Shown here piece after piece: positions 9,249 to 38,895 of a stretch of DNA of 64,000 bases. Position numbers and translations under genes: made by a program. This stretch comes from a virus (lineage: Duplodnaviria > Caudoviricetes): the IMG/VR virus record IMGVR_UViG_3300025018_000142, positions 1 to 64,000 of that record; one strand, given 5' to 3'. Positions within the stretch are counted from its first letter, which is position 1. Every line of letters begins with the position of its first letter. The notes beneath the pieces were generated by a model. It was not told where the DNA came from. It searched no databases and saw nothing but the letters and a program-made list of their open reading frames with translations.

Positions 9249-9277
9249 TTTACAAGAAACTACAACTGCGGTAGAAT
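9249..9277 (+). promoter_or_regulatory. leaderless-type promoter for 9283
   Basis: TTTACA-17-TAGAAT-5 nt-ATG. Confidence 0.7.
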
Positions 9278-9282
9278 GTCTT

Positions 9283-9645
9283 ATGATGGAAAAACAATTT
9301 TTGAAGTTCCTTTATGTAAAGTCTCTCAATATCGGGAGTGTTACGGCGAGGCGAGGGGCCAAGGGGAATTTCCTCGTGGGTACGATACAGTTTAACGGGG
9401 CGTATTACAGCTGTGCGATATTTCCTGATAGCAGAAAACCTGGGCAGATGAACATAACGGTAGAACTTCCGATGTACGATACCTATTCGTACAAGAGGGA
9501 CCAACAAGCGGCTAGGGAGACCGAGGAAACGCAGGGTGCAGAAATCGCGGGAAAGCAACTAGACGAAGAGACGGTAGAAACGGTGGACCCAGAGGGAATA
9601 AAAGATGCACCTGAGATGGAAGACGTTGAGGACTTATTTAAGTAG
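9283..9645 (+). CDS. small beta-rich protein with acidic tail (SSB-like or small terminase candidate)
   Basis: Beta-strand pattern followed by E/D-rich tail ending EDVEDLFK; directly upstream of TerL. Confidence 0.6.
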   Translation: MMEKQFLKFLYVKSLNIGSVTARRGAKGNFLVGTIQFNGAYYSCAIFPDSRKPGQMNITVELPMYDTYSYKRDQQAARETEETQGAEIAGKQLDEETVETVDPEGIKDAPEMEDVEDLFK

Positions 9646-9654
9646 GCGTACCCC

Positions 9655-11388
9655 TTGGAACTAGAATTAAAAAAACTCATTGAGCCGTACTATGCGACTT
9701 CTGAAGAACTTGCACCACTCAATGCTGAAGAGAAGCAGCTCAGGGCGATTATAGATAACAGTTTCATTGATTTTTTCAAGACAATCTTTGAGGATAGGGC
9801 AACTGATGCGTTTTCCGAGAGGGTGATTGCAGCGATTGATGACACGGTGTTCACGATGAACTCGGTACAGAAAGCGGCAAGGGCTTGGCCTAGAGGTTTC
9901 GGCAAGACAACCTTGTTTTCAATTGCCTTTATGATTTGGTTGATTGTGACTAGGAGAATCAGGTTCGGGGTGATTGTTGGTTCGTCCCAGACGTGGGCCA
10001 ATAGTCAGCTACTTGCTATTCAGGAGGAATTTCTGGGCAACAGGAAGCTCCGTAAGCTTTACGGGGACTTCAAGGAAGGAGACAAGTGGTCCCAAAACGA
10101 TTTTGTAGTGAAGGGGTTTAGGGGAACGTCAAAATGGAGCACCAAATGCTTAGCACTAGGTCGTGGTGGTTCTATCCGAGGTCAGTTATTCAAAATCCGT
10201 CCGCAGTTTGTTCTTTTGGATGATATTGAGAAGCTGGAGGAGTCGTATTCGGCACGCTTAATTGAAAAGACGCTCAACTGGGTAGCCAATACGGTTCTTA
10301 AAATGGGTAACATGGAAACTCGTTACCTGTGGCTGGGTACTGTGCTGGAAAGGGACTGTGCATTTGACCGGATACTGAAGGGAGAGCTCGGATTCTTTTC
10401 GGGCAGGTACTCAGCAGTTATCAAGTGGAGCAAAAATCAACACTTGTGGGAAGAGTGGGGTAAGCTTTTACAGCTAGACATCAGGCACAAGGATAAAAAG
10501 CTCAGTATATCGGAATCCTTTTACACAAAGAATAAAGAGAAGATGATGGAGGGTGTGGTGGTCTTGTGGGAGCAGCACCGTAACTACAAATACCTCATGT
10601 ATCAGTTCTACACGGAAGGAGCCACGTCTTTCTACAAGGAAATGCAGAATGACCCGAAGAGCACCCGTTCTGGCTTCTTCACTCCGCACTTCAGGAAGAT
10701 TTTGCCAGAAGAGGTAAAACAAATGGTTCGGTACTGCGTGGTGGACCCGTCTTTGGGAAAGGTTATGCCTTCGGCTATAGTCGATTTTGGGTTCAATATC
10801 AAAGGCGGAAGCGGTGTCTGCTCGGTATTCGATGCTTCAATTAAGCATCGAAACCCGGACGTACTGATTCTGGCGGTTATCGACCACCTCAGACGGCACG
10901 ACATTCATACTCTTATCATCGAAACAATACAATATCAGGACTTTCTGCGTATGGTTATTGACGAACGGCTCAAAGCGCTCAAGATGAAGGTGTTAGTACT
11001 TCCCTTCCACAGCTCTGAGCAGAAGGAATCGAGAATCGAGGCGCAACAACCGCTTATCAATACGGGCAGAGTCGAGTTTGACGAATCTTTGAAGGGAAAG
11101 CAGATGGGTATAGAGCTTTTCTCTTATCCTGCCAGTCAGTTTGTGGACGGGCTAGATGCTTTATCTATGGGGATTATTAAAGTCAAGGATAGTATCATGG
11201 GATTTGGCGATATGCAGGTGGTGAAAATACGAAATGACTTGCTTTATATTACAAACAACTATAAAATTGACAGTGAAGGCAGAACTCCTGTCATGAGGAA
11301 ACTTATGGAGCAGAAGAAGCGCTTGGAAAAAAATAAAATGCGTGAGGCTCTGAGCATCAAAGATGAACAAATTGAAAGGAATGAATGA
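9655..11388 (+). CDS. terL: terminase large subunit
   Basis: Walker A (WPRGFGKTT), Walker B (VLLDDIE), FYKEMQNDP, nuclease VVDPS, DGLDALS. Confidence 0.93.
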   Translation: MELELKKLIEPYYATSEELAPLNAEEKQLRAIIDNSFIDFFKTIFEDRATDAFSERVIAAIDDTVFTMNSVQKAARAWPRGFGKTTLFSIAFMIWLIVTRRIRFGVIVGSSQTWANSQLLAIQEEFLGNRKLRKLYGDFKEGDKWSQNDFVVKGFRGTSKWSTKCLALGRGGSIRGQLFKIRPQFVLLDDIEKLEESYSARLIEKTLNWVANTVLKMGNMETRYLWLGTVLERDCAFDRILKGELGFFSGRYSAVIKWSKNQHLWEEWGKLLQLDIRHKDKKLSISESFYTKNKEKMMEGVVVLWEQHRNYKYLMYQFYTEGATSFYKEMQNDPKSTRSGFFTPHFRKILPEEVKQMVRYCVVDPSLGKVMPSAIVDFGFNIKGGSGVCSVFDASIKHRNPDVLILAVIDHLRRHDIHTLIIETIQYQDFLRMVIDERLKALKMKVLVLPFHSSEQKESRIEAQQPLINTGRVEFDESLKGKQMGIELFSYPASQFVDGLDALSMGIIKVKDSIMGFGDMQVVKIRNDLLYITNNYKIDSEGRTPVMRKLMEQKKRLEKNKMREALSIKDEQIERNE

Positions 11389-13726
11389 CGAGGAAAAGTA
11401 CACGACCGCCCATGCGGATGTCAGAAAGTTCAAGGAATTTAGAGATAGCGAGACAGTCCTCTACGAAGAGGGGCTCGAGAAAATGTGGGACTTAACCCGT
11501 AAGCGGGCTATACAATACTCAAGGGTCCATACTGATGAGTTCGGGCGCGAGAGATTTAATACCAAGTCCCCGTATATAGCGTCTACAGTTGACGCGTTCA
11601 TGGCCGAGTATACTAAGCGCAACCTTTCTTATGTTTTCAGCGAGCGTGTTCCCGTTGCGAATACGGACAGACTCTTTTTAACCAATGCTGTATTTAACGC
11701 ACTGATGTTCAGTAGATATAAGCTCAAAGAGAAATTGTTTCCGGTCGTTAAAGACGCTGCCACAACGGGCATGGCCTATGTGAGCGTAGGTTACTCTTAC
11801 CGCGCCAGAGATGTAAGCCTGTTCAAAGACAACGCGTGGGAACTCTGGAAGAAAGGCGATAGGGATATTTTCAAGAAGAAAGAGATTGTCGATTACGATG
11901 GTGTAGAGATTACCCCACTCGCTCCAGAAGATGTTTACTTCTCGTGGGATGGAACTGACTTTGGTACAGGGAACGGGTATATCTCAAGAGCCGCGGTTAT
12001 CCGATACATGGACCTAGATGAACTGAAGGACCAGCTTAAAGGGAATCCGTTTAGCAAAAACCTAGAGTCAATGAAAGCGCAAGGTTCCATGATTAACGAT
12101 GGCAACATCTTCCAACCGATTAGAACAAACAAACACTTCGACAATATGGACGAAGTAATCGACTACTACGACCAACGCCAAGACTTATACTTGATATTGG
12201 CCGGCGGAAAAGTGGTGCTCGAAATGCCTATTCCAAACAGTATCAAGCGAATCCCGATTGTGGCTATCAAGCCTTTTCCTATTCAGTATTCACCGTGGTC
12301 GCTTGGCTATGGAGCGAAATTACTCTCTACCTCAGATTATTACGAGAAACTTTATGACGCAATTCTTGAAGGTGTTAGTTATTCTCTTATGGATATTTAC
12401 GCTACTTCTCCGCAATCTCACGAGCAATTAGTAGACGGGTATCTTAATGCAGATGGTGTTACCTTCATTCCACTTGAGGGTGGCTCCGACAGTGTCAAGC
12501 GGCTCGATAAGAGCAACTTACCTATTGCAGAAGTGTCGAAGGTACTGCAAGACATGGAGAAAGAAGCGGTCTTAAAGACAGGCGTGGACCAACGAGCGAT
12601 GGGATTTGCAACGAAGTCGGCAACGGCAACTGACGCAGCGCTCAACAAAGAAGCAACCACCGCCATGCTCGACTTACCGTTCATGCAGATTCAGCACGCA
12701 ATTAGCCAGATAGGGGAATTGTCATACTGTATTATTAAAGATTTTATGGCTATTCCAGAGCTGCTCGCTAAAAAGGTACAGGAAAAAGAAACGCTAGATA
12801 ATAGCAAGATAGTGCCTGTTGATGGAGTTGAAGTAATACAAAACGAGAGTGGCGAGTATATAGTGACAAAGAAAAGTGGCGTAAAGGCTAGTGTCGTATT
12901 GACAAAGGAATTATTCGATTTTGATATGGACCAAATAGAAGTGCACGCTGAGGGCGTACCTTCTATGTCAAAAGGAATGCAGATGAAAAAGTCTGAAGAG
13001 TTGTTTGCTTTGGCCGCTCCTTACGCCGGAGACACATCAGCACCTCCCGTGCAGGGACAGCCAGCACCTTATATCGAAATGAGAGACCTACTTAGGGCAA
13101 CCTTCAAGTCGCACGATTACGACATCGGCTTGATTGCGAACAAGGGCGGCACTATAGAAGAAGCAATTAAACGAGCGTATATCCAACAGGACTCGCTCAA
13201 GAAAGGAGAACCGGTAGAACCGATGCCGGGTGAACCGCCACAACACGTTGAAATTCACGAGAAGGCACTTGCTATTGGTAGGCAAAAACTAGAGCAACTG
13301 GCAGAAACCGCCGAGAACATGGAGGATTTATCAATCGTTACTGAATATCTTGATGCGCTACAGGAACACACGGCAGGAGATACCATGCAACCAGCAGAGT
13401 TCTTTGCCCAGAATAGTGGAGACGAACAAACGACTCCCGGACCTGACGGGACCACGCCACAAGATATGTTACCAGCAGGAGAGATAGGAGCCGAGGGAAT
13501 GCCGCCAGAGATGCAGGGCATGACGCCTCCAATGGACCAGGTAGCCACGGTGTCTACAATGGACCCAGGCGAGGCAATCCGTAAAATGATGGCAAATGGG
13601 AGACCAGACATGGCACAAAACCCGATGCAAGCCGGAGTCGGTATGCCAATGCAAGATAACGCAATCAGTGGTAATCAACGGCTACAGTCGGAAGATGCTG
13701 GGGGAATGTTACCCCCGAACATGTAA
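11363..13726 (+). CDS. portal protein, P22/podovirus-like with long acidic Pro/Met-rich C-tail (start may be 11381)
   Basis: Position after TerL, 787 aa, KTGVDQRAMG...TATDAAL stem motif. Confidence 0.85.
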   Translation: MNKLKGMNDEEKYTTAHADVRKFKEFRDSETVLYEEGLEKMWDLTRKRAIQYSRVHTDEFGRERFNTKSPYIASTVDAFMAEYTKRNLSYVFSERVPVANTDRLFLTNAVFNALMFSRYKLKEKLFPVVKDAATTGMAYVSVGYSYRARDVSLFKDNAWELWKKGDRDIFKKKEIVDYDGVEITPLAPEDVYFSWDGTDFGTGNGYISRAAVIRYMDLDELKDQLKGNPFSKNLESMKAQGSMINDGNIFQPIRTNKHFDNMDEVIDYYDQRQDLYLILAGGKVVLEMPIPNSIKRIPIVAIKPFPIQYSPWSLGYGAKLLSTSDYYEKLYDAILEGVSYSLMDIYATSPQSHEQLVDGYLNADGVTFIPLEGGSDSVKRLDKSNLPIAEVSKVLQDMEKEAVLKTGVDQRAMGFATKSATATDAALNKEATTAMLDLPFMQIQHAISQIGELSYCIIKDFMAIPELLAKKVQEKETLDNSKIVPVDGVEVIQNESGEYIVTKKSGVKASVVLTKELFDFDMDQIEVHAEGVPSMSKGMQMKKSEELFALAAPYAGDTSAPPVQGQPAPYIEMRDLLRATFKSHDYDIGLIANKGGTIEEAIKRAYIQQDSLKKGEPVEPMPGEPPQHVEIHEKALAIGRQKLEQLAETAENMEDLSIVTEYLDALQEHTAGDTMQPAEFFAQNSGDEQTTPGPDGTTPQDMLPAGEIGAEGMPPEMQGMTPPMDQVATVSTMDPGEAIRKMMANGRPDMAQNPMQAGVGMPMQDNAISGNQRLQSEDAGGMLPPNM

Positions 13727-13727
13727 C

Positions 13728-13756
13728 TTGACGAAACTAACAATCCTTGCTAAACT
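13728..13756 (+). promoter_or_regulatory. leaderless-type promoter for 13763
   Basis: TTGACG-17-TAAACT-6 nt-ATG. Confidence 0.7.
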
Positions 13757-13762
13757 CTGTCA

Positions 13763-14128
13763 ATGAGCGATTTAGAAAATACTGTCAATATCCTTAAAGA
13801 GATTAAGACTGTCGATAAAAAGACGGGCATGAGTTTTCGTGGGCTATATGGAATCGAACTGGCAAGTGATGCCGATTTAGAAGCGTTAGTGCGACTAGGG
13901 GAGTCTCCTGTATTCGAGGCACTGCGCAAGATATACTCGTATTCTGAGGCGAACTCCATGAGGAAAGCGTGGCAGATATTTTCCAAAAATAAAGAGGTGG
14001 GAGAAACATTTACCTCGGTCGATTGGCTTGAGGGTTTCGGTGTTGTGCTGGGAATACCCTACGCGGCTATGGTAGAGATAGCCAAAAGGAAAAAAGTTAA
14101 GGAGCAGTTAGTTAAGAAAAAGAAATAA
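13763..14128 (+). CDS. small head-module protein
   Basis: Between portal and scaffold; Lys-rich tail. Confidence 0.65.
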   Translation: MSDLENTVNILKEIKTVDKKTGMSFRGLYGIELASDADLEALVRLGESPVFEALRKIYSYSEANSMRKAWQIFSKNKEVGETFTSVDWLEGFGVVLGIPYAAMVEIAKRKKVKEQLVKKKK

Positions 14129-14144
14129 TTTTTATTAAATAGTC

Positions 14145-14963
14145 ATGGCAGAAGAAGTAATTGTACCCCCAGTAGTTGAACCAGTAGTGCCTCCAGTAGA
14201 AGCACCAGTTGAGGAGCCCGCTGCACCAGTTGATGAACCTGTTGCAACTCCCGTTGAGGAAGTTGAAGGTGCAGAAGGTGGAGAAGGTGGAGAAGAGCTA
14301 CCAAAGACAGATGAAAAGTCTTCTGCTGCTGAAGCATTACGCTTACTAGCAGAAAATAAAAAGATTCAACCTTTTGCCAATGTGGGTTATGCCGCGGCAA
14401 AGCTGGCCGAGAAGAATCCAGAGGTTAGAAAAGCAATCAACGACATAATGACGGCGGTTAGCGAGGGGAAAGATATTGATGAAGCTGTTGCAGCTTTGGG
14501 AACAAAGATGAAGGAAGCTGGGACTGAACCGGTAACTGCTCCAGTAACTGCCCCAGAGGCAGCAGTTGCACCGACAACCGAGAGAGAAATAAAATACGCA
14601 TTGACAAAATTATCAGAAAGCTACCCGCAAATTATCACTGGCGGACCGGATTCCGAGAAACTTGGTAAGAGGGCGTATGAACTGTATGAGTCCAAAGGTC
14701 TTCCCATGATGGAAGCATGGGAACAATCTGCGCGAGAAGTGTACGGGAATCCTGTTAGTATTGAGGCGAGTAAGTTCATGCAAAGCACTGTCGCTGGATT
14801 AGGCGGCTCTGGAACGGTAGGCAATCCTGGGCAGTCATCAGACAAGAAACAGTTGGCGGCACAGAACGTTAATAAGGCGCAGCCGAAGATTAGTGTCGAG
14901 GAGGCCAGAAAGCTGATTGACTCTGGTGCACTAGACAACTGGGAAGACTATCTCGAAGAGTAG
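14145..14963 (+). CDS. capsid scaffolding protein
   Basis: P/V/E-rich disordered N-terminus, helical core, upstream of capsid genes. Confidence 0.8.
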   Translation: MAEEVIVPPVVEPVVPPVEAPVEEPAAPVDEPVATPVEEVEGAEGGEGGEELPKTDEKSSAAEALRLLAENKKIQPFANVGYAAAKLAEKNPEVRKAINDIMTAVSEGKDIDEAVAALGTKMKEAGTEPVTAPVTAPEAAVAPTTEREIKYALTKLSESYPQIITGGPDSEKLGKRAYELYESKGLPMMEAWEQSAREVYGNPVSIEASKFMQSTVAGLGGSGTVGNPGQSSDKKQLAAQNVNKAQPKISVEEARKLIDSGALDNWEDYLEE

Positions 14964-14966
14964 TTC

Positions 14967-14996
14967 TTGACATTTCCTGAACAATTAGATTACAAT
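14967..14996 (+). promoter_or_regulatory. promoter of the capsid operon
   Basis: TTGACA-18-TACAAT. Confidence 0.65.
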
Positions 14997-15106
14997 TAGA
15001 TACTTATGTTTCCGTAAGCTTGGGTTTTTCCCTTGCGTGGTAGCATAATAAATCTCACTACACCTTGAATAAAGGTTTATTTTCAGTTAATTTAATTGTT
15101 TTATAC

Positions 15107-15580
15107 ATGGCAGGATTTTTACATGTACGAGGGAAACAGGAACTCAGAAAAGTTCTTATTACCAACAGTGCGGCTATTAAAGTAGGTGCACCAGTTAAAC
15201 TCACCGCAGCTCTTGCGGTTCCTTCAACGGCAGGGGCAGCAGACGCATTGGGAATGTGTGTTGGCGTTTGTAATATAGAAGGAAAACCGGTAGCAGATAT
15301 TGACTACGGTGATACATTCACCGCAGAAGCAGATAATCAAACTGTCGACCAAATCTACGCGATTGTAGACACGAGCAAAGAATCAGAATGGGAAGTTGCC
15401 CCAGATGCAGCATTGGGAACAACGACCACTTCGGCGTTGCCATTCCAATTCTTCGACATTACCTCAGCTATTAACGTAATAGACGAATCGAGTGTATCGG
15501 CAACGACCGGTACCTTCTTCTCGCTTGCGGTATTAGATAACGGTAATTTGATTGTTAAATTCAACGAGCTTTTGGCTTAG
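15107..15580 (+). CDS. capsid decoration/cement-like protein (ATG 15107 preferred over TTG 15065)
   Basis: AIKVGAPVKL...ALGMCVG pattern; directly before MCP. Confidence 0.7.
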   Translation: MAGFLHVRGKQELRKVLITNSAAIKVGAPVKLTAALAVPSTAGAADALGMCVGVCNIEGKPVADIDYGDTFTAEADNQTVDQIYAIVDTSKESEWEVAPDAALGTTTTSALPFQFFDITSAINVIDESSVSATTGTFFSLAVLDNGNLIVKFNELLA

Positions 15581-15613
15581 TTGATTAGAATTTAATTTTA
15601 TAGAAAAGATATT

Positions 15614-16582: not shown

Positions 16583-16591
16583 GGGAGTTTG

Positions 16592-16621
16592 CTACGGGGG
16601 GGAGGTAACTTCTCTCCGTAG
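16592..16621 (+). terminator. hairpin after MCP
   Basis: CTACGGGGGGGAG-GTAA-CTTCTCTCCGTAG. Confidence 0.7.
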
Positions 16622-16645
16622 TTATCTTATTTAATTGGAACTAAT

Positions 16646-17485: not shown

Positions 17486-17503
17486 CAGTAACTAGAAAGT
17501 AGC

Positions 17504-17540
17504 TACACAGAGAGGGGAGATAAGGCTCCCTTCTTGTGTG
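17504..17540 (+). terminator. hairpin
   Basis: TACACAGAGAGGGGAG-ATAAGG-CTCCCTTCTTGTGTG. Confidence 0.7.
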
Positions 17541-17941: not shown

Positions 17942-17975
17942 GTGGGGAATAACCTAAGTTTGACTACAATAGAAT

Positions 17976-20558
<2,583 letters not shown>

Positions 20559-20559
20559 T

Positions 20560-22475: not shown

Positions 22476-22504
22476 TTGACTGTACAATACAGAAGTAGTA
22501 CACT
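22476..22504 (+). promoter_or_regulatory. promoter for the methyltransferase-glycosyltransferase pair
   Basis: TTGACT-17-TACACT-8 nt-ATG. Confidence 0.7.
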
Positions 22505-22512
22505 TTCTTTAT

Positions 22513-23121
22513 ATGAAAACAGAATGGGAAAAGGCACAAGAGTTTGAGAAAAATTGGCACAATAACCAGCAATTTAATACCTATAATGAGGAAACCAAGC
22601 AATATACTTACGCTTCCCTGATGGGGTTAGATGAGTATAAAACAAACCATTTTAACCAAAGTGGGTGGGACTTTGGAGATAAATACATAATCGACATCGG
22701 TGGTGGGGAACAGTCGATTTTACTCAAAAGTAAAGCAAAGGAAAGGACCGTGATAGACCCATGCAAGTATCCAGAATGGACCATGCTTCGATATAAGGAG
22801 GCTGGTATAAAGTTCTGTGACTGGAAGGGCGAGGATATACCAACAGAGAATATACAGGTAGATATGTGTTTTATTTACAACTGTCTACAGCACACGGAGG
22901 ACCCCGAAAAGATTATCCAAAATGCGAAGAAGATGTGCAAGACACTCCATATTTTTGAGTGGATAGACATAGGGCTTTCCGAAGGGCATATTCACAACCT
23001 GAAAGAGGAGGAGCTAAACAAGTGGCTGGGTGGAATTGGACAGACGAAACAGTTGAACCAAGATGGACTTTTTGGAAGGTGCTATTTTGGAGTTTTTTTG
23101 GGTTCACACTACGGAGAATAA
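22513..23121 (+). CDS. class I SAM-dependent methyltransferase
   Basis: IIDIGGG motif I, VIDP, FIYNCLQHTEDPEKIIQNAKK. Confidence 0.85.
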   Translation: MKTEWEKAQEFEKNWHNNQQFNTYNEETKQYTYASLMGLDEYKTNHFNQSGWDFGDKYIIDIGGGEQSILLKSKAKERTVIDPCKYPEWTMLRYKEAGIKFCDWKGEDIPTENIQVDMCFIYNCLQHTEDPEKIIQNAKKMCKTLHIFEWIDIGLSEGHIHNLKEEELNKWLGGIGQTKQLNQDGLFGRCYFGVFLGSHYGE

Positions 23122-24359
23122 TGACATTTCATCTCTTGGGACTTTCGCATTTACCTTGGTCCAGAGAGTATAATTCGTGCGCATTTTCGCAGAAAAATTT
23201 GAAACTCGCGAAGATGCTGACATCCTTAAATCATACAGTTTACGCTTATGGAGCAAAGGCCTCCCTTTATATGTATAGTGCGGAAAGTTACGTCAATTCA
23301 GACAAATTTCACTTTATAGAGACACATACAGTAGATGATATTGCTAGAGATTGGGGGGATGGGCGAAATGACTTCGAGGTGGGATATAATTGGACCCAAG
23401 AGCAATATAGACACGACTTTAATACCGAGAAGAAACCCAGCACCTTAAAACTATACACAGTAGCAAGCCAGTACATTAACGCACACAGGAAACCAGATGA
23501 CTTCCTTTTAAGAACAATGGGGGTGTACCATGATGTAGTTGCTAATGCCACGGGTTTAGCTTTAGATTGTGAGAGCGGAATTGGTTATACGGGTTCAGAA
23601 GCAGGAACACCAGAACACCCACGTTACCGCTGCTTTGAGAGCTCCGCTATGATGCACTTTTCCTATGGTGCGGAGTTTGGCAAAGGAGTTACTCCAACAG
23701 GTAACTATTACGACAGGGTGATTCCAAACTACTTCGACGATGCAGACTTTACTCCAAGATATAAGAAAAAGGATTACTTTCTATTTATTGGACGACTAAT
23801 AGTGGCAAAGGGAATCTGGATTGCCGTAGAGACCGCAAGAATACTAGGTAAGAAGCTAATCATTGTGGGACAAGGGGCTAAAGTAGATAATCGCGGACAC
23901 CTTGTTGGGGACGGCTTTGATATCCCACCTTCAACTTGGGAATTTCAAGGGTACGCAGACGCAGAGAAACGGAAGGAGCTTTACGCAAACGCAGCCATTA
24001 CCTTCGTGCCTACTTGGTATATTGAACCCTTTGGGGGGACAAACGTAGAAAGCAGACTATCAGGAACTCCTGTTCTTTGCTCTAACTTTGGGGCTTTTCC
24101 TGAACAAGTTACTAATGGATTAGATGGGTACTGCTGCGATACTCTAGATGACTATGTGGCAAAGGCGAAGGAGCTCCTTGTGTGGGCCCCAGAAAAACTA
24201 AAACAGGTCAGAAAACGAGCGGAAAAATATCTAATGGATAATGTACGTTGGGATTACCAGAAATGGTTCGAGGACCTACAAATACTCTTTCACAACAAGG
24301 AGGGGGTGAATTATATTAGGGAGGAGAATCCAGAGTGGAGACAGAGAATCAGTTGGTAG
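23121..24359 (+). CDS. GT-B glycosyltransferase, GT4-like (start ATG 23121 overlaps the MTase stop, TAATG)
   Basis: FLFIGRLIVAKG, FVPTWYIEPFGGTNVESRLSGTPVL (E-x7-E), NGLDGY. Confidence 0.88.
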   Translation: MTFHLLGLSHLPWSREYNSCAFSQKNLKLAKMLTSLNHTVYAYGAKASLYMYSAESYVNSDKFHFIETHTVDDIARDWGDGRNDFEVGYNWTQEQYRHDFNTEKKPSTLKLYTVASQYINAHRKPDDFLLRTMGVYHDVVANATGLALDCESGIGYTGSEAGTPEHPRYRCFESSAMMHFSYGAEFGKGVTPTGNYYDRVIPNYFDDADFTPRYKKKDYFLFIGRLIVAKGIWIAVETARILGKKLIIVGQGAKVDNRGHLVGDGFDIPPSTWEFQGYADAEKRKELYANAAITFVPTWYIEPFGGTNVESRLSGTPVLCSNFGAFPEQVTNGLDGYCCDTLDDYVAKAKELLVWAPEKLKQVRKRAEKYLMDNVRWDYQKWFEDLQILFHNKEGVNYIREENPEWRQRISW

Positions 24360-24387
24360 ATAACTTTGGTTAGTGCTAAAATAGTCT

Positions 24388-25293
24388 ATGGACTTTACAA
24401 ATCACGCGCTATCAACCACAGGAATTAAGATAGTTGATGCGACCACCAGCTTTACCGTACCTACGGCAGATGCGGATAAATTCCCCACTGCAAATTTCAT
24501 AATGACGGTATGGGGTAGCTCGTACCTACGACCCAGAGATGATAACAATGTGGAGATAATCGAATGCGCTCGTTCTGGAGCAACAATAACTATTGTGACT
24601 CGTGCTATGGAAGGTACTACACAGGTAGACCACGCAGCAGGAAGTTGGTGCGGAGTATTTTTGACTGCTGGTATTCTTAATGATTTGCGGGACTTGGCTG
24701 ATGCTAGTTTTCTGCCCGATATGGCTACGGCTTCTGGTGAGTATTTGACAAATAATGGTACTATCCCTTCGTGGGATGACACAGTTCTCACCGAAACGAA
24801 CACTAAGGTATCAACCAATAAGACTTTCACGACTCCTGTTATAAACAGTGCAACGGGTGTTGGGGTTGTGCAAACTGCATATTGTACGACTCAACTGGAT
24901 GTAGTGAATAGCATTGTCGTTGCCAAGGTGGTAGGAACAGACCTTGTTGTGGAGTCCGGCAAGGTCTATAAGGTACACATAGTTCTTTATACGACAAGCG
25001 GGGCGGGCGGCGGAGTTAAGCCCTCAACAGGTGGGGGGGCAACAACGACAACGTGGTTATCGCAAGGCATTGTTTATAGTGGAAATGCTATTGTGCAGAA
25101 CACAAGAGGTACAAGCAGGACGGGGTCGCTTGCCGGTGCCACCGCAGTAACCGCTGCGTTTATTGTTATAGACGCATACTTCCTCGTGAATGTAGGCGGA
25201 ACGCTCTGGGTAACATTTGCACAAAATGCGTCAGATGCGGCAACAAGCTCGGTGCTAGTTGGTTCATTTATAACAATACAACAACTTAGTTAA
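24388..25293 (+). CDS. fibre/adhesin protein sharing its N-terminal domain with 17976
   Basis: FPTAN..T.W...YLRP.DD.N.EI.EC.RSG motif; TGnTAAAAT-5 nt-ATG upstream. Confidence 0.75.
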   Translation: MDFTNHALSTTGIKIVDATTSFTVPTADADKFPTANFIMTVWGSSYLRPRDDNNVEIIECARSGATITIVTRAMEGTTQVDHAAGSWCGVFLTAGILNDLRDLADASFLPDMATASGEYLTNNGTIPSWDDTVLTETNTKVSTNKTFTTPVINSATGVGVVQTAYCTTQLDVVNSIVVAKVVGTDLVVESGKVYKVHIVLYTTSGAGGGVKPSTGGGATTTTWLSQGIVYSGNAIVQNTRGTSRTGSLAGATAVTAAFIVIDAYFLVNVGGTLWVTFAQNASDAATSSVLVGSFITIQQLS

Positions 25294-28130: not shown

Positions 28131-28159
28131 TTGACAGTATTGATGAGGAATAGTATAAT
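28131..28159 (+). promoter_or_regulatory. perfect consensus sigma70 promoter, leaderless
   Basis: TTGACA-17-TATAAT-5 nt-ATG(28165). Confidence 0.88.
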
Positions 28160-28164
28160 AGGCT

Positions 28165-28797
28165 ATGGCTAGAAGTAAAGAAGAGATTAAAAAAGTTACG
28201 GAAGCGTTTAGGCTTGGAGTATCTGCAAAGGATATGGGCAAGATGTTCATGATGAAGAGGGAGAATGTGTACTCATTGTTACGTTCCAATATGTCGAAAG
28301 AGGAATACATATCGCTCACGGTTAAGAGGCGTTCTGTTTATGACGGGCGAATTATGGATAAACGTAATGAAATAGTGAACCTAATCAAATCAGGCAAACT
28401 AATTTCTGATGTTGCTAAGGTTTACGGTATGTCGGAGTTTGCGGTGAGGTACTACTACTACAAGTATATTAAGCCCTCGGAGAGAAAGAAGTATCTGCTC
28501 AAGTCCGATGCTAAGAATAGCCAGAGAAGGCTTGTTAAGATTGCGAAGATTAAAGGCTTTGTCGAAAAACTGAAGGATACTTGCAGTGTTGAAAGACTGG
28601 CCGACATCGAAGGGAAGAAATATAATACCATGTGGGTGTATCTACGGAGGAACCGTGCTATTATTGAAGGATTGACGGGCATGGAGTATTCACAGTTCCT
28701 AACTTCTGTAAGAGGGTATTCTCATGATATTGACGTGGAATCTGTACTCGAAGGGGTCCTTGCGGAACGAGAGGCTCACGAAGCAAAACAGGCCTAG
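28165..28797 (+). CDS. multi-HTH DNA-binding protein
   Basis: Three HTH-like repeats (GVSAKDMGKMF, GKLISDVAKVYGMS, SVERLADIEGKK). Confidence 0.7.
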   Translation: MARSKEEIKKVTEAFRLGVSAKDMGKMFMMKRENVYSLLRSNMSKEEYISLTVKRRSVYDGRIMDKRNEIVNLIKSGKLISDVAKVYGMSEFAVRYYYYKYIKPSERKKYLLKSDAKNSQRRLVKIAKIKGFVEKLKDTCSVERLADIEGKKYNTMWVYLRRNRAIIEGLTGMEYSQFLTSVRGYSHDIDVESVLEGVLAEREAHEAKQA

Positions 28798-32484: not shown

Positions 32485-32485
32485 T

Positions 32486-32911: not shown

Positions 32912-32935
32912 GAGCGAAAGGTGGTAAAATAATAA

Positions 32936-33496
32936 ATGGCTGTAACCTACAAAGTAAAAAAAGGAGATACCTTATATGCTATAGGGCGGCGATATGGTAT
33001 TCCGTGGACCGCTATTTTCAATGCAAATAGAAGCGTGGTGCCTAGTGCGAGAACGTTGGGGATTGGTACAACTCTGATTATACCTACGAGCAAAAATACC
33101 CCAGGTGCAACCAATACTAACACGGGTACCGAGATTGCAAGGAAGGCATTTAGTGAAGCGGTGCCGTGGGAGAAGTTTCTACCAACGGACTCAATAAACA
33201 AATTCTCCGAATCGCGCGTAAACCCAGAATATCAAAGGTCTGGGGAAGCTGCGACTAATCGAAACGCATGGCAAACCGGTCTTGCCAATACCTTTAGGAG
33301 TGGATTCGCACAGAAACAGGCGCAGGATATTGTAGATGCAAACGAAAGGGCAAGAAAAGGAGCACTGGCAGATTATGTGCAACAGCAAACAAATCTATTT
33401 AGTGACTTGTATGCGAAGGAGTGGGATAAGTACGATAAGAACCCAGCGAACTACTTGCCGCAATACGACCGATGGGCACAAAGCATATTGAAGTAA
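32936..33496 (+). CDS. LysM-domain virion protein
   Basis: YKVKKGDTLYAIGRRYGIPWTAIFNAN...IGTTLIIP. Confidence 0.9.
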   Translation: MAVTYKVKKGDTLYAIGRRYGIPWTAIFNANRSVVPSARTLGIGTTLIIPTSKNTPGATNTNTGTEIARKAFSEAVPWEKFLPTDSINKFSESRVNPEYQRSGEAATNRNAWQTGLANTFRSGFAQKQAQDIVDANERARKGALADYVQQQTNLFSDLYAKEWDKYDKNPANYLPQYDRWAQSILK

Positions 33497-33521
33497 ATTG
33501 AATTAAGAAGTACAATAGAAC

Positions 33522-34133
33522 ATGGCAAACCTTAGTGCATTAGAAAGAACGATTGCGAAGTACGATGCTCAGGCACCAAACATTCAGCAAGATATCAAGA
33601 ATAAAATCAATGCGCAGTTTGATAACGGCAAGCCATGGCTCGAAGATACAGCACGTTGGGAGCGAGATATTCTTCCGGCATTCTACAAGCAATTTGCAGA
33701 ACAAGGTACAGGTGCATCGGATTTATCCCCAGCACAACAACTGCTACAAGGTTCACAGAACACTGCAAGAAGCGGTAGACTTGCTGATGTTGGTTCGGGT
33801 ATTTACGCACGGCAGCAAGATAGGGAATCGGAGATGTTAAGGAATCGGTTGGCTGCGTGGCAAATGGCTAGGCAAACTGCTACCGATGCTTGGAGCAGGG
33901 AAATGCAAAGACAAGCAGCGGCAAGGGCATCGAGGACACCAACTAATCCGTGGGATAACTTTGATTTTACGGGGGATGATACTGCCGATACATCTACGGG
34001 CGCCTCCGTGTCACTGCCAAAGTTGTCGGCTGGTGCTCCAGCTGTCCGGAGTACGCAAAATCAACTGATAGGAGCTATTCCCGATGTAATAAAAAGCTTT
34101 CTTCCTAACTTCTTAAAGATATTCAAAAGATAA
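33522..34133 (+). CDS. putative internal virion/ejection protein
   Basis: Q/A-rich helical protein; TTGAAG-17-TACAAT-5 nt-ATG upstream. Confidence 0.6.
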   Translation: MANLSALERTIAKYDAQAPNIQQDIKNKINAQFDNGKPWLEDTARWERDILPAFYKQFAEQGTGASDLSPAQQLLQGSQNTARSGRLADVGSGIYARQQDRESEMLRNRLAAWQMARQTATDAWSREMQRQAAARASRTPTNPWDNFDFTGDDTADTSTGASVSLPKLSAGAPAVRSTQNQLIGAIPDVIKSFLPNFLKIFKR

Positions 34134-34134
34134 T

Positions 34135-34788
34135 ATGGCGAAGAAACAAACAATAAAGATTAAAGACCCAGAGGTTTTACAGTATCTGCAAATACTTCAG
34201 ACCATGGGGAGGGCAGACCCAGAGAACGCTTCCCAGTATCTTACACAGGCGATGGGTGTCTACACCTCTTACCTAGATTCACAGAAACCAGAGAACAAAG
34301 TTGCAAAGATTTACGGCGCAGATATAGCCCCGGCGTTGTTGGGCTCAGGACTGAAGCCGGAGGCACTTGCCGATGAAAGGTATGCAGATTTTGCAAAGCC
34401 GTTAGTTACGCAGTTTATGACACTTAGAAACAAGTATACCCAGGGTACTGCTAATAAGAACGAAATAAAGAAAATGACCGCACTGGAGGGTCTTATCAAT
34501 AACCCATCAAGAATATCTGAGTACCAATACTACAAGCCAGACGCGAACGACAAACAAGGCGTGATAGATAGCAATCTTTTTAGAAAGTCGCTACAGCAAA
34601 CAGGAAAGGACATGATTCCAAAGAATCCGCTATCTTGGCTGACTCCAGGTGGATTCGTAGGAAATGTTGGGAAATCCGCTGTGGGATTAGCTGCACAGGG
34701 ATTTGCTCAACCAAGTGATTTGGCGATGAAAAACAACGCATTCAAAGACATTACAGGAGACATAGGAAATATAAATCCTTTACAGTAA
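34135..34788 (+). CDS. putative internal virion/ejection protein
   Basis: Helical; between LysM and the large ejection protein. Confidence 0.6.
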   Translation: MAKKQTIKIKDPEVLQYLQILQTMGRADPENASQYLTQAMGVYTSYLDSQKPENKVAKIYGADIAPALLGSGLKPEALADERYADFAKPLVTQFMTLRNKYTQGTANKNEIKKMTALEGLINNPSRISEYQYYKPDANDKQGVIDSNLFRKSLQQTGKDMIPKNPLSWLTPGGFVGNVGKSAVGLAAQGFAQPSDLAMKNNAFKDITGDIGNINPLQ

Positions 34789-34813
34789 TGGACAGTCGCT
34801 ATACAATAGAGTT

Positions 34814-37800
34814 ATGGCAGACTTTAGTTTCACAGAAGCATCTCAGAAATTCAGTAAAAAAAGAAAGAAATCTATCTCTACTAAGATGGCTGCTACTACA
34901 GCAGCCCCACAGATGTCGTTGGATGAGATAGTAACAAAGCTTTCAGAAGACCCAAATTTCAAGACAGAAAATACCAAGGCGAACCTTCTCACTAGATTAG
35001 GCTCAGGGCTCGGTGCGCTCAGTTTGACACCACAGTTGGCTGACGTTGCCAGTGGCGAGAAGGGTGGTGCGCAAGCTGCTATTGACTATTTCCCGCAAGT
35101 ATTCGATAGGTTAGTAAAGACGTTTAAGCCAAGTACCTCACAATCTGATTTAGAAAAATATAACGATTCTGCTAGTAGACTTGTATCAAATCTCGGTGGA
35201 GATGCTATCAACGATATTCCCTTCGTGGGGAAACCTTTACGTTTTTTGGCTGATGTAGCAACCGATATTGGGTTTGACCTAGGTACATACCTCCCGTTGG
35301 AGGGGCTACTGGGTATTGGTGGTAAAGTTGCCAATAAAGTCGCTCCAGTTATTAAAACAGCGAAGGGGACCTATAAGATTGCAGAAAAAGGATTACCTCT
35401 ATACGACAACGTAATAAATGCGGTTACTAGAGTTATGGGTAAGGGTAGTGAATACGCAGATGACTTTATTAGAAAATTGGATACCGCATATCCGGGTATG
35501 GCTACGAAAGTACGGGTTTTATTTGGTAAAAGTGATGCTGCTCCGTTGGCGGGGAAGGTTGTTGATGATGTCGCTAGTGCCGTAGACAATGTGGTGGGTG
35601 ATGCAGTTAAAGTAGTAGATTCTCCTGTGGCCTCCGATATTATGAAGAGTACAGTAAAGAAAGGTGGGAAATTAGAACAGACATTTGAACAATTCAAGAA
35701 GGCTGTTATTAAAAATACAGGGCAGTTTTCTTCCAAAGATGCACAGACTTGGTATGATATGGCTAAAAATGCCAGAAGTACAAAGGTAACTAAGAAATCA
35801 CTTAACGCTGCTGAGTCATTTACAAATGCTGCCGATAAGAAAGCGATGAGGGAAGTAGAGAAACTCACGAAAGCGGCAGGATTAGGAAAGGGAGAGGCAG
35901 ACGATGCGGTTCGCAGAATTAAACAATTAGGGGGTACAAACGAACTTACCGAACTGTCCTCTGTAACTGCCAGAAATGAAGCGGCCTTGGAGATATCACA
36001 AACTGTGTACGGTGAAATGATTGAAAATGGCGGAGTATCAAAACTGCTCAATACACTACCCGATGAGATTGCGGCACCTATTAGGGAGATGGTTTCTAAG
36101 ATGAACGTAGCAGACTTGCACTATGGTGGAAATCCTGTTAAGCCTATGATTGACTTGGCGAAATTCGGACAAGAATCTAGGGCTGTACTTCACAAAGCGT
36201 TATCCACATTACCGAAGCCATTGTTTGATATGTTAAAATCGACTAAGGTTGGATTGACCGCAGCATTTGATAACTTCCCAGTCATGAAAGATTGGCCTAT
36301 TGTAAGAGATGCGTTTCAAAAGATGCTCAACTCTAATAGAGGAGCTAGGGAATATGGACAATCGGTGCTTCGTTATATGACTAGGGAGCTTGATAATGTA
36401 CTAAAAGCAAAAGGATTTACAGGAACTGATGTTGTGAGTGCAGTTGAATACATTGGAAGACCAGCATGGAGAAAAAGAATCTTAAAGAACGTGCCGAATG
36501 TAATGGAGATTATCAACGATAAAGAGATGTCTCCACTTCTTAACACAATCACGCAGTTATTCAATGAAAAAGAAACGCTAGGACTTCTTGGAATCAGGGA
36601 GAACGCAGGATACTTTGCTCGTATGATTGACCCAGACAATGCAGAAGCGATGGCGGCATACAAGAAGGCTGGGCTACTTAAATCTCCAAAGGCAAAACTC
36701 AGCGGATTCGCTAAAGAACGCGCATACAATATCCCGTTCAACGAAGCACAGACAGAACTTGCAAAGTTGGGTGGTAAATATAAAGAAGATATGGCCTATG
36801 TGCTGGCTACCTATGCTACTAAAATGGCACAGTCCAAAAACACACTATCCTTCTTTGCAACGCTCATGGACACCCCGTTGGTAAAACTGGCCGAGGACGC
36901 GCCTGACAATTTTGTTGCTATTAGCGAGAAGACAATACCCCTGTTCAAAGGGTACAAGGTACACCCAGAAGTTGCTGGTGTCATGCAGAAGATAGTCGAG
37001 GTCACACAGGGCAAGTATAACCCAGCGGGGATATTAAAAATTACTGACTATATAACAAACCTATTCAAGTCCAGTGTTACCGTATATTTTCCAGCATTCC
37101 ACTTCAGGAACTTAATGTCTAACGTATTTAATATCGCAGTGTCTGGACAGAATCCGGCAGGAATACCCAGGCTGTTCCGTAAGGCCCTTGATATTGCTAA
37201 ATACGGGAAGATGTTAGAAGAAGGGAAAGATGTGGCAAAGTTTGGTGAGAAGATTCTCTCAACCGTCCGAGGGAAATCCTATACAGTCGCTGACCTATTT
37301 GAACTCACAAGAGTGAACGGAGTACGAGGTGGACAGGTTATTGAATCCATTGGAAAGGGAAACGCGTTAGATGAAATTGGAAAGAACACTCTTGGCAGAT
37401 TGAAAGATGTTGCACAAAACGCGGGTAAAAGAGTGGAAGGTGATTCTCGTGTTGCTATGTTTCTATCTGGGTTAGAGCGAGGTGCTACCCCAAGTAACGC
37501 CGCGGGAATGGTTAAGAAGTTCCTGTTTAATTACGATGAACTCACGGACTTTGAAAGGAACTGGATGAAGCGCCTAATACCCTTCTATTCGTATATGCGA
37601 TTCAATATCGAGTTGCAGTTACAGCTCATGGTGCAGAATCCAAAGCTGTACTCGAAGTTACTAAAAGCTGGAAACGCTTTGGCTGGCCCTGAAAACGAAG
37701 AGAATGTGCTGCCAGATTGGACCAAGCAAACGCTAGGATTGGACCTAAATGGACTTCCCGGATTACCAAACGCCACATCTGGTACACAGATATTTTCTCC

Positions 37801-38386
37801 TGGACTTGGATTGCCCCCAGAGCAACTCAATAGTATATTCGGTAGAACTCCGCGAGAAAGTGGCGAGAACCTACTCGGTTCACTTAACCCACTGCTAAAA
37901 GTACCCCTAGAGCAGATATTTGACTACAATCTGTTTAAGGGAAAGAAAATTAGCGAAGATACTGACGGAACACAGTTCAAGAATGCACCCCTCGCAATCA
38001 AGAAATTCATGGGCTATAAGGAAACAGCCGTTGAAATGAAAGACCGAGACGGGAATATCAAGAAGTCAACACGGTATACCGTAGACGCACAAAAGAAGTA
38101 TATGCTTAACGCCTCCGTTGGTAGGGGTAGTTCTACAACACTGAGGTTGGTGGATTTGCTTAATAATGTAAATAGTGGAAAAGGCTCGTGGGTAGACATA
38201 CTTCCGTTATTTACGGGGATAAAGACCTACAGCTTCAATATAGCAGACGAACAGGCGAAGCGAGAAGCAGAGAAAAAGAAACGGGTACTTAACAAATTAT
38301 TAGAAGAAGGATACGGGAAGAGTTATACGAGTTCCTCTTTAGATGCAGAGGCAAGACAACAGGTGATTGACAAGTATCTACAGTAG
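34814..38386 (+). CDS. large internal virion/DNA ejection protein (1190 aa)
   Basis: Largest ORF, helical; FHFRN...N and ELTDFE...KRLIPFYSYMRFN motifs typical of podoviral ejection/polyvalent proteins; TTTACA-17-TACAAT-6 nt-ATG. Confidence 0.72.
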   Translation: MADFSFTEASQKFSKKRKKSISTKMAATTAAPQMSLDEIVTKLSEDPNFKTENTKANLLTRLGSGLGALSLTPQLADVASGEKGGAQAAIDYFPQVFDRLVKTFKPSTSQSDLEKYNDSASRLVSNLGGDAINDIPFVGKPLRFLADVATDIGFDLGTYLPLEGLLGIGGKVANKVAPVIKTAKGTYKIAEKGLPLYDNVINAVTRVMGKGSEYADDFIRKLDTAYPGMATKVRVLFGKSDAAPLAGKVVDDVASAVDNVVGDAVKVVDSPVASDIMKSTVKKGGKLEQTFEQFKKAVIKNTGQFSSKDAQTWYDMAKNARSTKVTKKSLNAAESFTNAADKKAMREVEKLTKAAGLGKGEADDAVRRIKQLGGTNELTELSSVTARNEAALEISQTVYGEMIENGGVSKLLNTLPDEIAAPIREMVSKMNVADLHYGGNPVKPMIDLAKFGQESRAVLHKALSTLPKPLFDMLKSTKVGLTAAFDNFPVMKDWPIVRDAFQKMLNSNRGAREYGQSVLRYMTRELDNVLKAKGFTGTDVVSAVEYIGRPAWRKRILKNVPNVMEIINDKEMSPLLNTITQLFNEKETLGLLGIRENAGYFARMIDPDNAEAMAAYKKAGLLKSPKAKLSGFAKERAYNIPFNEAQTELAKLGGKYKEDMAYVLATYATKMAQSKNTLSFFATLMDTPLVKLAEDAPDNFVAISEKTIPLFKGYKVHPEVAGVMQKIVEVTQGKYNPAGILKITDYITNLFKSSVTVYFPAFHFRNLMSNVFNIAVSGQNPAGIPRLFRKALDIAKYGKMLEEGKDVAKFGEKILSTVRGKSYTVADLFELTRVNGVRGGQVIESIGKGNALDEIGKNTLGRLKDVAQNAGKRVEGDSRVAMFLSGLERGATPSNAAGMVKKFLFNYDELTDFERNWMKRLIPFYSYMRFNIELQLQLMVQNPKLYSKLLKAGNALAGPENEENVLPDWTKQTLGLDLNGLPGLPNATSGTQIFSPGLGLPPEQLNSIFGRTPRESGENLLGSLNPLLKVPLEQIFDYNLFKGKKISEDTDGTQFKNAPLAIKKFMGYKETAVEMKDRDGNIKKSTRYTVDAQKKYMLNASVGRGSSTTLRLVDLLNNVNSGKGSWVDILPLFTGIKTYSFNIADEQAKREAEKKKRVLNKLLEEGYGKSYTSSSLDAEARQQVIDKYLQ

Positions 38387-38395
38387 CGGTAGAAT
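38367..38395 (+). promoter_or_regulatory. leaderless-type promoter for 38401
   Basis: TTGACA-17-TAGAAT-5 nt-ATG. Confidence 0.8.
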
Positions 38396-38400
38396 AGTTC

Positions 38401-38895
38401 ATGAAAACATTAGATGTAAAGGCAATCAAGATTCCGCAGAATTTTCTATATCAACCTGGGTTATTCAATAAGCAGGAAGAGATTGAGAAATGGGTGGAAG
38501 AAGAGGTGTATAACAAGACGCGCAACGATGATGTAGTCGTATTCAAGCTTGGCGATAAGGTAGCCGAGTCCAAAGTATTTATATCTGTTATCAGCGATGA
38601 ATCCTTCATGTTGACAAAGGCTGGCGGTAAAGCGGCACTTATAGATAGAAAGAATCTATTTGGGAGGGATATGCGATGGGGAATTTACGGTGCTATGCAG
38701 ACGAATCTTTATGCTGATTTAATCGTGATTATACTGAGGAAACTTATTGGGTTGCACAACAATGAGATTGCTCCAGTCAAAAAGGAAGAGGAGCTTAACA
38801 AGATGGTTGATGCTATGGTCCCGGAGTTTACTAAACCGAAGGTGAATCTGTTTGCGAAGAAGAAAAAGAAGAGGGCGGTTCGCAAGAAGAAATAA
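38401..38895 (+). CDS. hypothetical protein with very basic tail
   Basis: Ends AKKKKKRAVRKKK. Confidence 0.7.
   Translation: MKTLDVKAIKIPQNFLYQPGLFNKQEEIEKWVEEEVYNKTRNDDVVVFKLGDKVAESKVFISVISDESFMLTKAGGKAALIDRKNLFGRDMRWGIYGAMQTNLYADLIVIILRKLIGLHNNEIAPVKKEEELNKMVDAMVPEFTKPKVNLFAKKKKKRAVRKKK

Follow-up and report, generated by a model that had tools for sequence, protein, structure and literature searches.

Host-type promoters abutting late gene starts predict leaderless first cistrons in a phage with few Shine-Dalgarno sites

Results

Promoters stand against gene starts in the structural arm

In the stretch of viral DNA analyzed here (64,000 nt, hereafter the window), promoter sequences lie immediately upstream of the start codons of genes in the late, structural arm of phage A. 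Judged by their sequence features, ten of these sites are sigma-70/sigma-A promoters for the host's primary RNA polymerase. They are predicted to divide this 30-kb arm into ten or more transcription units, each opening with a leaderless cistron. We consider the best explanation, and a probable one, to be that host-type promoters would give leaderless first cistrons as an adaptation to a host using few Shine-Dalgarno (SD) sites. Throughout, early and late are labels assigned by gene content only.

All ten sites lie on the plus strand, and their coordinates, hexamers, spacings and -35 boxes agree with those listed in an earlier, sequence-only reading of this DNA. The first (9249-9285) consists of TTTACA (9249-9254), a 17-nt spacer, TAGAAT (9272-9277), 5 nt and ATG 9283, the first start of the ORF of a 120-aa gene just 5′ of terminase. 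It is followed by TTGACG-17-TGn-TAAACT (13751-13756)-6-ATG 13763 (13728-13765) and by TACAAT (17965-17970)-AGAAT-ATG 17976 (17965-17978). The latter precedes a collagen-like fiber gene; lacking both a -35 box and TGn, it makes the weakest case for a promoter among the phage-A sites. A methyltransferase gene lies behind TTGACT-17-TACACT (22499-22504)-8-ATG 22513 (22476-22515), with a predicted leader of 1-2 nt, and a tail-fiber-like gene behind TTGGTA-18-TGn-TAAAAT (24377-24382)-AGTCT-ATG 24388 (24353-24390). The site at 28131-28167, TTGACA-17-TATAAT (28154-28159)-AGGCT-ATG 28165, is the sole 12/12 consensus promoter in the window. Its gene product is a helical protein of 210 aa with weak HTH hits, and two homologs (64% and 59% identity) preserve the N-terminus at 28165. 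Next, TGn-TAAAAT (32925-32930)-AATAA-ATG 32936 (32922-32938) opens an ORF with an endolysin/peptidoglycan-binding-like N-terminus. The last three sites have their -35 boxes within upstream ORFs: TTGAAG-17-TACAAT (33511-33516)-AGAAC-ATG 33522 (33488-33524); TTTACA-17-TACAAT (34802-34807)-AGAGTT-ATG 34814 (34779-34816), ahead of a 1190-aa gene; and TTGACA-17-TAGAAT (38390-38395)-AGTTC-ATG 38401 (38367-38403), an 11/12 match whose -35 box is inside the 1190-aa ORF.

These promoters are found in short intergenic gaps or within the final codons of the preceding gene, occupying 10 of about 17 late-arm gaps of at least 14 nt. The cistrons behind them are stacked, either overlapping or 1-16 nt apart. 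As had been noted earlier, six of the sites take the form TAnAAT-AG-N3-4-ATG, and a phage-B site at 53442 makes a seventh; the AG just after the -10 box is conserved among sites.

Four further sites, one in phage A and three in phage B, occur on the minus strand. An extra phage-A site in the early arm, CTGGCA-18-TGn-TAAAAT (629-624)-6-ATG 617 (615-653), is of the same kind as the ten. The motif had also been reported at three phage-B genes, and all three occurrences are present, though they form the weaker part of the set, each being without a -35 box: an extended -10, TGn-TAGAAT (53453-53448)-AGGGT-ATG 53442 (53440-53456); TATAAT (49978-49973)-TGTTT-ATG 49967 (49965-49978), at an amidase endolysin gene; and TATAAT (59619-59614)-AAAAC-ATG 59608 (59606-59619). 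Because its hexamer includes the upstream gene's stop codon and it has no -35 box, 59608 is the most doubtful site. Two weaker candidates precede ATG 45753 and ATG 73969, the latter outside the window.

The hexamers have the properties of sigma-70 -10 boxes

Motif enrichment upstream of starts was among the checks proposed along with the sequence-only reading. TAnAAT is found 5 nt before nine and 6 nt before two of 110 curated gene starts, and each of the other spacings from 0 to 40 nt holds 0-2 occurrences. The Poisson p-value of this peak, confined to 5-6 nt, is 5e-13 against the genome-wide rate and about 1e-10 against the local upstream rate. The same crude motif test scores 10 of 92 ORFs here, as against 7 of 1713 ORFs across 111 other phage loci, and within the full set of 112 the contig is an outlier for the motif and for low SD alike.

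The upstream elements point to promoters. A -35 box matching TTGACA at five or more of six positions lies 16-18 nt away at six of the ten phage-A sites; among TAnnnT hexamers as a whole the proportion is 2.2% (p = 2.5e-8). Of the 55 perfect TTGACA hexamers, 14 are followed by a TAnnnT at this spacing. Compared with TATAAT, the -10 hexamers of the ten sites and the three phage-B sites match in at least five positions at 11 of 13 sites and in four at the remaining two. A TGn-extended -10 accompanies the weak -35 regions at 24388, 32936, 617 and 53442 (two or three of the four phage-A sites whose -35 is weaker) and occurs also at 13763; 17976, 49967 and 59608 have neither element. Across the plus strand of the late arm, the strongest promoter-like sites are the ones that abut an ATG, including the only 12/12 site. 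The Bacteroidetes-type motif TAnnTTTG showed no enrichment. Taken together, the -35 frequencies, the TGn compensation and the lone 12/12 site uphold the identification of the hexamers as sigma-70-type -10 boxes.

It is extremely improbable, in our judgment, that the hexamers are not promoters but an AT-rich context aiding SD-less initiation, or chance matches that include upstream stop codons. Upstream regions are indeed AT-rich across the contig and full of stop-codon words, the TATAAT at phage-B 59608 contains an upstream stop codon, and the phage-B sites are without -35 boxes. However, no upstream stop codon overlaps any of the ten hexamers of phage A, the positional peak stands far above the local AT-rich background, and a translation signal would leave both the TGn compensation and the 17-nt spacing of the phage-A -35 boxes unexplained.

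Promoter spacing predicts transcription starts at the start codon

At the 13 sites, the distance from the -10 box to the ATG is 5 nt in ten cases, 6 nt in two and 8 nt in one. At the phage-A sites, the A of the ATG is the sixth or seventh base after the -10 box, which should place the 5′ end of the message on the start codon itself or, at 22513, 1-2 nt ahead of it. All sites have ATG as the start codon, with no earlier in-frame start available to the ORF except at 49967, where a TTG lies two codons upstream. An in-frame stop is found at most three codons upstream of the ATG at seven of the ten phage-A sites, and a pyrimidine immediately precedes the ATG at 11 of the 13. No SD is present near the start at any of the 13 sites. 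Against the leaderless reading, the 5′ ends of promoter-adjacent ORFs show only a marginal reduction in structure relative to other genes (p = 0.058). The fixed 5-6 nt to the ATG is the geometry of a leaderless first cistron, as the sequence-only reading had argued, and in leaderless-rich genomes the Pribnow box lies a few nucleotides from the first gene of the operon (PMC6028130, PMC12340547). Transcription would then begin at the A of the ATG. Each unit's opening cistron would be translated without a leader, and the cistrons behind it by coupling or by SD-independent initiation.

The geometry could also arise from genome packing, with real booster promoters squeezed into gaps of 14-56 nt, starts falling a few bases off the A, transcripts serving chiefly the downstream cistrons, and the adjacent gene translated from read-through. 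Tight packing is evident where the -35 boxes at 33488, 34779 and 38367 overlap the 3′ ends of upstream ORFs, and the late arm also has leadered promoters, whose -10 boxes end at 8803, 14996 and 26423. Moreover, E. coli polymerase prefers to start at the seventh or eighth base after the -10 box and rarely starts at the sixth, which is where a 5-nt spacer puts the A of the ATG. For the dominant 5-nt spacer, this rule would make the T or G of the ATG the preferred start base. Packing alone, however, predicts a spread of distances rather than the observed concentration at 5 and 6 nt. Gaps of 56, 43, 36 and 34 nt could hold a leader, yet the -10 box adjoins the ATG, and a pyrimidine at -1 with an A at +1 favors a start at the A. 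Packing is accordingly a quite unlikely account.

The early arm differs in promoter geometry but not significantly in SD use

The sequence-only reading went further, contrasting leaderless late genes with early genes that use SD sites. We find this early-versus-late reading only partly supported. The asymmetry in promoter geometry is real: 10 of 36 late starts in phage A abut a promoter, compared with 1 of 31 early starts (p = 0.008). The named early genes at 2159, 3058, 4327 and 43876 do carry AGGAG, AGGAGG or GAGG, but SD sites precede only 8 of 31 early genes (26%), modestly above the 10.6% of random controls (p = 0.013). In the late arm the count is 3 of 36, no more than chance would give, and the two arms do not differ significantly (p = 0.096 overall). 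The same is true when the early genes are compared with late cistrons behind no such promoter, which have an SD in 3 of 26 cases (p = 0.19). Strong early promoters lie 21-51 nt before their genes, and the early leaders we inspected (7717, 45753, 48726 and 49105) are AT-rich and without SD. An example is TTGACA-16-TATAGT, 21 nt before GTG 7717 (7717-7766, minus strand), which would give a short SD-less leader.

These observations bear on the proposal of a temporal translational switch, in which early messages are leadered and carry SD sites, and leaderless late messages escape a phage- or defense-imposed shut-off or gain from a shift in initiation factors. Such a switch would fit the differing promoter-ATG geometry of the two phage-A arms and the modest SD excess found in the early arm only. 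The late promoters, moreover, are of near-consensus host type; nothing resembling a phage-specific late motif was seen among them, and a Sigma70_r4 domain was looked for in the contig and not found; together, these two features mean that timing would need another layer of control. There is also precedent in phage phiYS40, whose middle and late mRNAs are mostly leaderless, for which increased IF2 and decreased IF3 have been reported and a shift to leaderless-mRNA translation through these factors has already been proposed (PMC3594737).

Against a switch, an SD is missing from 23 of the 31 early genes, and the inspected early leaders and the non-significant difference between arms point the same way. 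A block on leadered initiation would also strike the 26 of 36 late cistrons that are not leaderless, those for terminase, portal and major capsid protein included. No gene for a translation-modifying factor was recognized, though most genes are without annotation. We regard the switch as unlikely, and as a contrast between early and late translation it is not supported by the sequence.

The whole contig is SD-poor, early genes included, and the design therefore most likely reflects a host with mostly SD-less initiation that accepts leaderless first genes. Host adaptation is thus more likely than a dedicated phage switch, a judgment drawn from the phage's own gene starts only.

Discussion

The design described here has already been shown in Thermus phages and predicted in mycobacteriophages, and the switch idea likewise has precedent. 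In the Thermus phages phiYS40 and Lalka27a, leaderless middle and late transcripts come from many host-polymerase promoters, as would be the case here. In Lalka27a, start sites follow a TAnnnT -10 box at a distance of six base pairs, and 16 late promoters are predicted (bioRxiv 10.64898/2026.04.20.719267). The late promoters of Lalka27a, however, have their own TAGGGT -10 and no -35, suggesting a phage factor there, whereas those in phage A are plain TTGACA-17-TAnAAT host promoters. The Thermus phages also infect a host phylum known to be leaderless-rich. Here the proteome looks mesophilic, and no Thermus phage was among the listed hits for TerL, portal or the 1190-aa structural protein.

Cluster O mycobacteriophages (Corndog and relatives) likewise have predicted SigA promoters giving leaderless mRNAs, and their genomes share with this one methyltransferase and glycosyltransferase genes amid the structural genes. 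Only three of their eight or nine promoters are described as leaderless, compared with ten in one arm here, and their host is a high-GC actinobacterium in which SD is used by the remaining genes, in contrast to the 42% GC and near absence of SD in this genome. A message that starts at the A of its AUG from a host sigma-70 promoter is known from lambda, where cI is transcribed from PRM; that case concerns a single regulatory gene of the lysogen, whereas here a series of structural-gene units would be involved.

Among cellular genomes, the layout can be compared with the leaderless first-gene-in-operon architecture of group C genomes (GeneMarkS-2) and Deinococcus-Thermus. Internal genes of group C, however, have SD ribosome-binding sites, and the internal cistrons here are SD-poor (3 of 26). 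A leaderless first gene combined with SD-less internal cistrons would bring this phage closer to SD-poor cyanobacteria, group X and low-SD phyla (PMC5397173).

A more far-reaching scheme, which we hold to be highly unlikely, would place the phage in a mesophilic, SD-poor host outside the known leaderless-rich phyla. The phage's whole virion program would run from plain host promoters, and a fixed module, TAnAAT-AG-N3-ATG, with an in-frame TAG one codon before the start, would yield leaderless first cistrons. The timing of virion synthesis would be set in translation, by a phage-induced shift to 70S/leaderless initiation, with no late transcription factor.

The promoters allow ten or more gene starts in this phage to be assigned confidently and mark out units within the structural arm. 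In phages of this type, gene callers that rely on SD sites will put starts in the wrong place. Many host-type promoters abutting the starts of virion genes have been shown experimentally only in Thermus phages, and here they appear in an unrelated lineage of 42% GC with almost no SD. Should the host prove not to be leaderless-rich, a phage-specific strategy would be far better supported.

Two phages on one contig

The full IMG/VR record is 74,352 bp long, and the window is its first 64 kb. Because positions 1-127 are an exact copy of 43892-44018, phage A, one of two phage modules in the record, is a 43,891-bp circle whose 127-bp end repeat is a circular-assembly signature. A near-identical repeat of ~245 bp (42429-42672, recurring at contig positions 74109-74352) links phage A to phage B, an unrelated module of ~31.7 kb. 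Together, the two repeats show that the record combines two phages, whether as a chimera made during assembly or as a cointegrate.

We assigned the arms of phage A as "late" or "early" by gene content only. The structural, late arm (8870-38895, plus strand) encodes a Mu-like large terminase, a major head protein, a collagen-like fibre, a methyltransferase and a GT4 glycosyltransferase. The early arm, on the minus strand from ~8700 through position 1 to 38831, encodes RecT, a pentapeptide-repeat protein and a nuclease, the last being a Pfam hit below cut-off. Phage B carries an HK97-type capsid protein, a prohead protease and an amidase on the minus strand. The pentapeptide-repeat gene of phage A (43099-43440, minus strand) includes a 15-bp unit repeated in tandem, with as many as seven perfect copies; in Pfam it matched pentapeptide families only, with no Macro domain at E <= 0.001. 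Elsewhere in this arm, an AT-rich block with TATATA-type repeats occupies 6480-6620, and near-consensus leftward promoters (6459-6431 and 6238-6210) lie beyond it, in a stretch of ~1 kb without a clear gene. This minus-strand region (6210-6620) could be an origin or control region.

Host-type promoter motifs close to late-gene start codons

The sequence-only reading had described -10 hexamers 5-8 nt before the ATGs of ten phage-A late genes (9283, 13763, 17976, 22513, 24388, 28165, 32936, 33522, 34814 and 38401) and three phage-B genes (53442, 49967 and 59608). All are present with the hexamers, spacers and -35 boxes it gave, confirming the observation. A further site lies in the early arm of phage A, at ATG 617. 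In each ORF the ATG is the earliest possible start, mostly with a stop codon no more than 3 codons upstream. Among 110 curated gene starts, TAnAAT lies 5 nt before nine and 6 nt before two, compared with 0-2 starts at any other spacing from 0 to 40 nt (Poisson P = 5e-13 at the genome-wide hexamer rate, 1e-10 at the higher upstream-region rate). We used 111 other loci from phages or prophages as an external control: they yielded 7 such starts among 1713 ORFs, compared with 10 among 92 for this contig under the same crude gene calling. One control locus with a high motif fraction (L145) proved to contain Shine-Dalgarno (SD) sites and miscalled starts. Within phage A, this geometry is found at 10 of 36 late starts and 1 of 31 early starts (P = 0.008); the asymmetry between the arms is real.

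By sequence, the hexamers of the phage-A sites are promoter -10 boxes. At six of the ten, a -35 box matching TTGACA at five or more of six positions lies at 16-18 nt, a feature of just 2.2% of the contig's TAnnnT hexamers overall (P = 2.5e-8). A TGn extension is found at the weak -35 sites 24388, 32936, 617 and 53442, and also at 13763. The window has a single promoter that matches the consensus at 12/12, TTGACA-17-TATAAT (28131-28159); it stops 5 nt short of ATG 28165, and an 11/12 promoter stops 5 nt short of ATG 38401. With mutually unrelated spacer sequences, the sites do not represent copies of a single repeat, and at several the -35 box falls within the last codons of the upstream ORF. 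Across the whole contig, TAnnnT follows 14 of 55 perfect TTGACA hexamers at 16-18 nt. We found no Sigma70_r4 domain in the contig, nor a tyrosine integrase or WhiB domain.

Immediately after the -10 hexamer, 7 of the 13 sites carry AG (17971, 24383, 28160, 33517, 34808, 38396 and 53447; P = 3e-6). Read with the hexamer's final T, it gives a TAG that is in frame with the downstream gene and sits one codon ahead of the ATG. This feature is absent from early promoters. The AG might affect start-site choice, or might stop ribosomes on read-through messages.

The site geometry matches that described for leaderless first genes in bacteria rich in such genes (PMC6028130; PMC12340547). At 11 of the 13 sites, the base immediately 5′ of the ATG is a pyrimidine. 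The commonest spacer, 5 nt, makes the A of the start codon just the 6th base past the -10 box, while E. coli polymerase prefers to start at the 7th or 8th. From promoter position, we infer that transcription starts at the ATG of these sites. A comparison of 5′-end structure, in which the predicted leaderless ORFs would be less structured, was not significant.

Late-arm units and gene starts

The sites take up 10 of the ~17 late-arm gaps of at least 14 nt, and the cistrons behind each are stacked, with overlaps of 1-26 nt or gaps of 1-16 nt. This splits the late arm into ten or more units, each with a predicted leaderless first cistron. Leadered promoters occur there as well; their -10 boxes end at 8803, 14996 and 26423. 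The best terminator-like site of the arm, a GC-rich 14-bp hairpin with a T-tract (16591-16622, plus strand), lies directly 3′ of the major head protein (capsid) gene. At 14967-15110 (plus strand), a strong promoter, TTGACA-18-TACAAT, is followed 9 nt past its -10 box by a three-codon ORF (ATG TTT CCG TAA), after which a ~100-nt leader precedes the likely real start, ATG 15108.

The large terminase (9655, plus strand) begins with a TTG 9 nt past the upstream gene and lacks an SD; same-length, full-coverage homologues back this N-terminus. Its translation is probably coupled to that of the predicted leaderless gene 9283-9645.

The start at ATG 28165 is supported by two homologues of its product (64% and 59% identity), both of which begin at the same methionine. 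This gene (28165-28797, plus strand), the one behind the sole perfect consensus promoter, has a 210-aa product that is all helical, with three modules resembling a helix-turn-helix. Pfam HTH matches are weak and below cut-off, and its fold gave no significant match in the PDB. The product may be a DNA-binding regulator inside the structural arm.

Shine-Dalgarno use and early-gene signals

We measured SD strength as duplex energy with the anti-SD sequence, taking -6 kcal/mol or lower as strong. Strong SDs precede 8 of 31 phage-A early genes, 3 of 36 phage-A late genes and 2 of 28 phage-B late genes, compared with 10.6% of random positions. SD occurrence in late genes is therefore at chance level, and early genes are modestly enriched (P = 0.013). 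Compared directly, early and late genes do not differ significantly in SD use (P = 0.096; P = 0.19 after exclusion of the leaderless-type late starts). No SD-like word appears among the enriched upstream k-mers, and the SD 4-mer fraction, 0.11 here, has a median of 0.41 across the control loci. The earlier claim that early genes use SD sites holds for about a quarter of them and fails for the rest.

Strong early promoters lie 21-51 nt before their genes, and no SD occurs in the AT-rich leaders at 7717, 45753, 48726 and 49105. At 22 of 31 early genes (minus-strand 315-8501 and 38831-44015; background 4.4%), a word of the form TAA-N1-3-TAA or TAAWTTA begins ~20-21 nt upstream of the ATG, and 24 of 31 have A at -3. 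This regular stop-spacer-start module (~17-18 nt) typifies early genes better than the SD does.

A proposed translational switch versus probable host adaptation

These patterns had been interpreted as leaderless late genes set against SD-led early genes, with a temporal translational switch in which late leaderless units escape a block on leadered initiation. That interpretation is partly supported: the promoter geometry of the two arms is asymmetric, but the contrast with SD-led early genes applies to just a quarter of the latter, and the sequence lends the switch itself no support. The switch also has an internal problem, as a block on leadered initiation would stop 26 of 36 late cistrons too, terminase, portal and capsid among them, unless coupling rescues them. 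On the simplest reading, the phage has adapted to a host whose initiation is mostly SD-independent and which tolerates leaderless first genes. SD poverty is common to both unrelated phages on the contig, with the motif weaker in phage B, and a trait set by the host fits this sharing.

In searches bearing on the host, nucleotide comparison of both contig halves with a phage collection found no match. TerL retrieved only Mu-like terminases of many hosts at ~30% identity, the portal gave no match and a 1190-aa protein gave a marginal match only; in a bacterial genome collection, neither TerL nor a 104-aa protein common to both phages had a match. Viral and metagenome contigs offered only relatives at ~30% identity or less, the closest TerL and RecT relatives came from Logan assemblies, and an Atlas search with the endolysin returned mixed taxa. 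One contig encoding a 41%-identical RecT (L166) has nothing else in common with the phage. We also rejected a Bacteroidota host: the Bacteroidetes-type motif TAnnTTTG is not enriched in the contig, and TTGACA-17-TAnnnT is clearly used. Amino-acid composition, a crude measure, does not suggest a thermophilic host. Canonical promoters combined with near-absent SDs point away from both Bacteroidota and Firmicutes.

Relation to known phages

Both the design and the switch idea are already known. In Thermus phage phiYS40, leaderless messages make up most of the middle and late mRNAs, and a shift towards more IF2 and less IF3 has been put forward as favouring them (PMC3594737). In Thermus phage Lalka27a, most transcripts are leaderless, 16 late promoters are predicted, and mapped starts lie six base pairs past the -10 element, on the start codon's first base (bioRxiv 10.64898/2026.04.20.719267); at our sites with a 5-nt spacer, the A of the ATG, the predicted start, is likewise the 6th base. 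Cluster O mycobacteriophages have predicted SigA promoters with +1 on the first codon (PMC4351075). New here are the lineage, late promoters that simply follow the host consensus, and their SD-free context.
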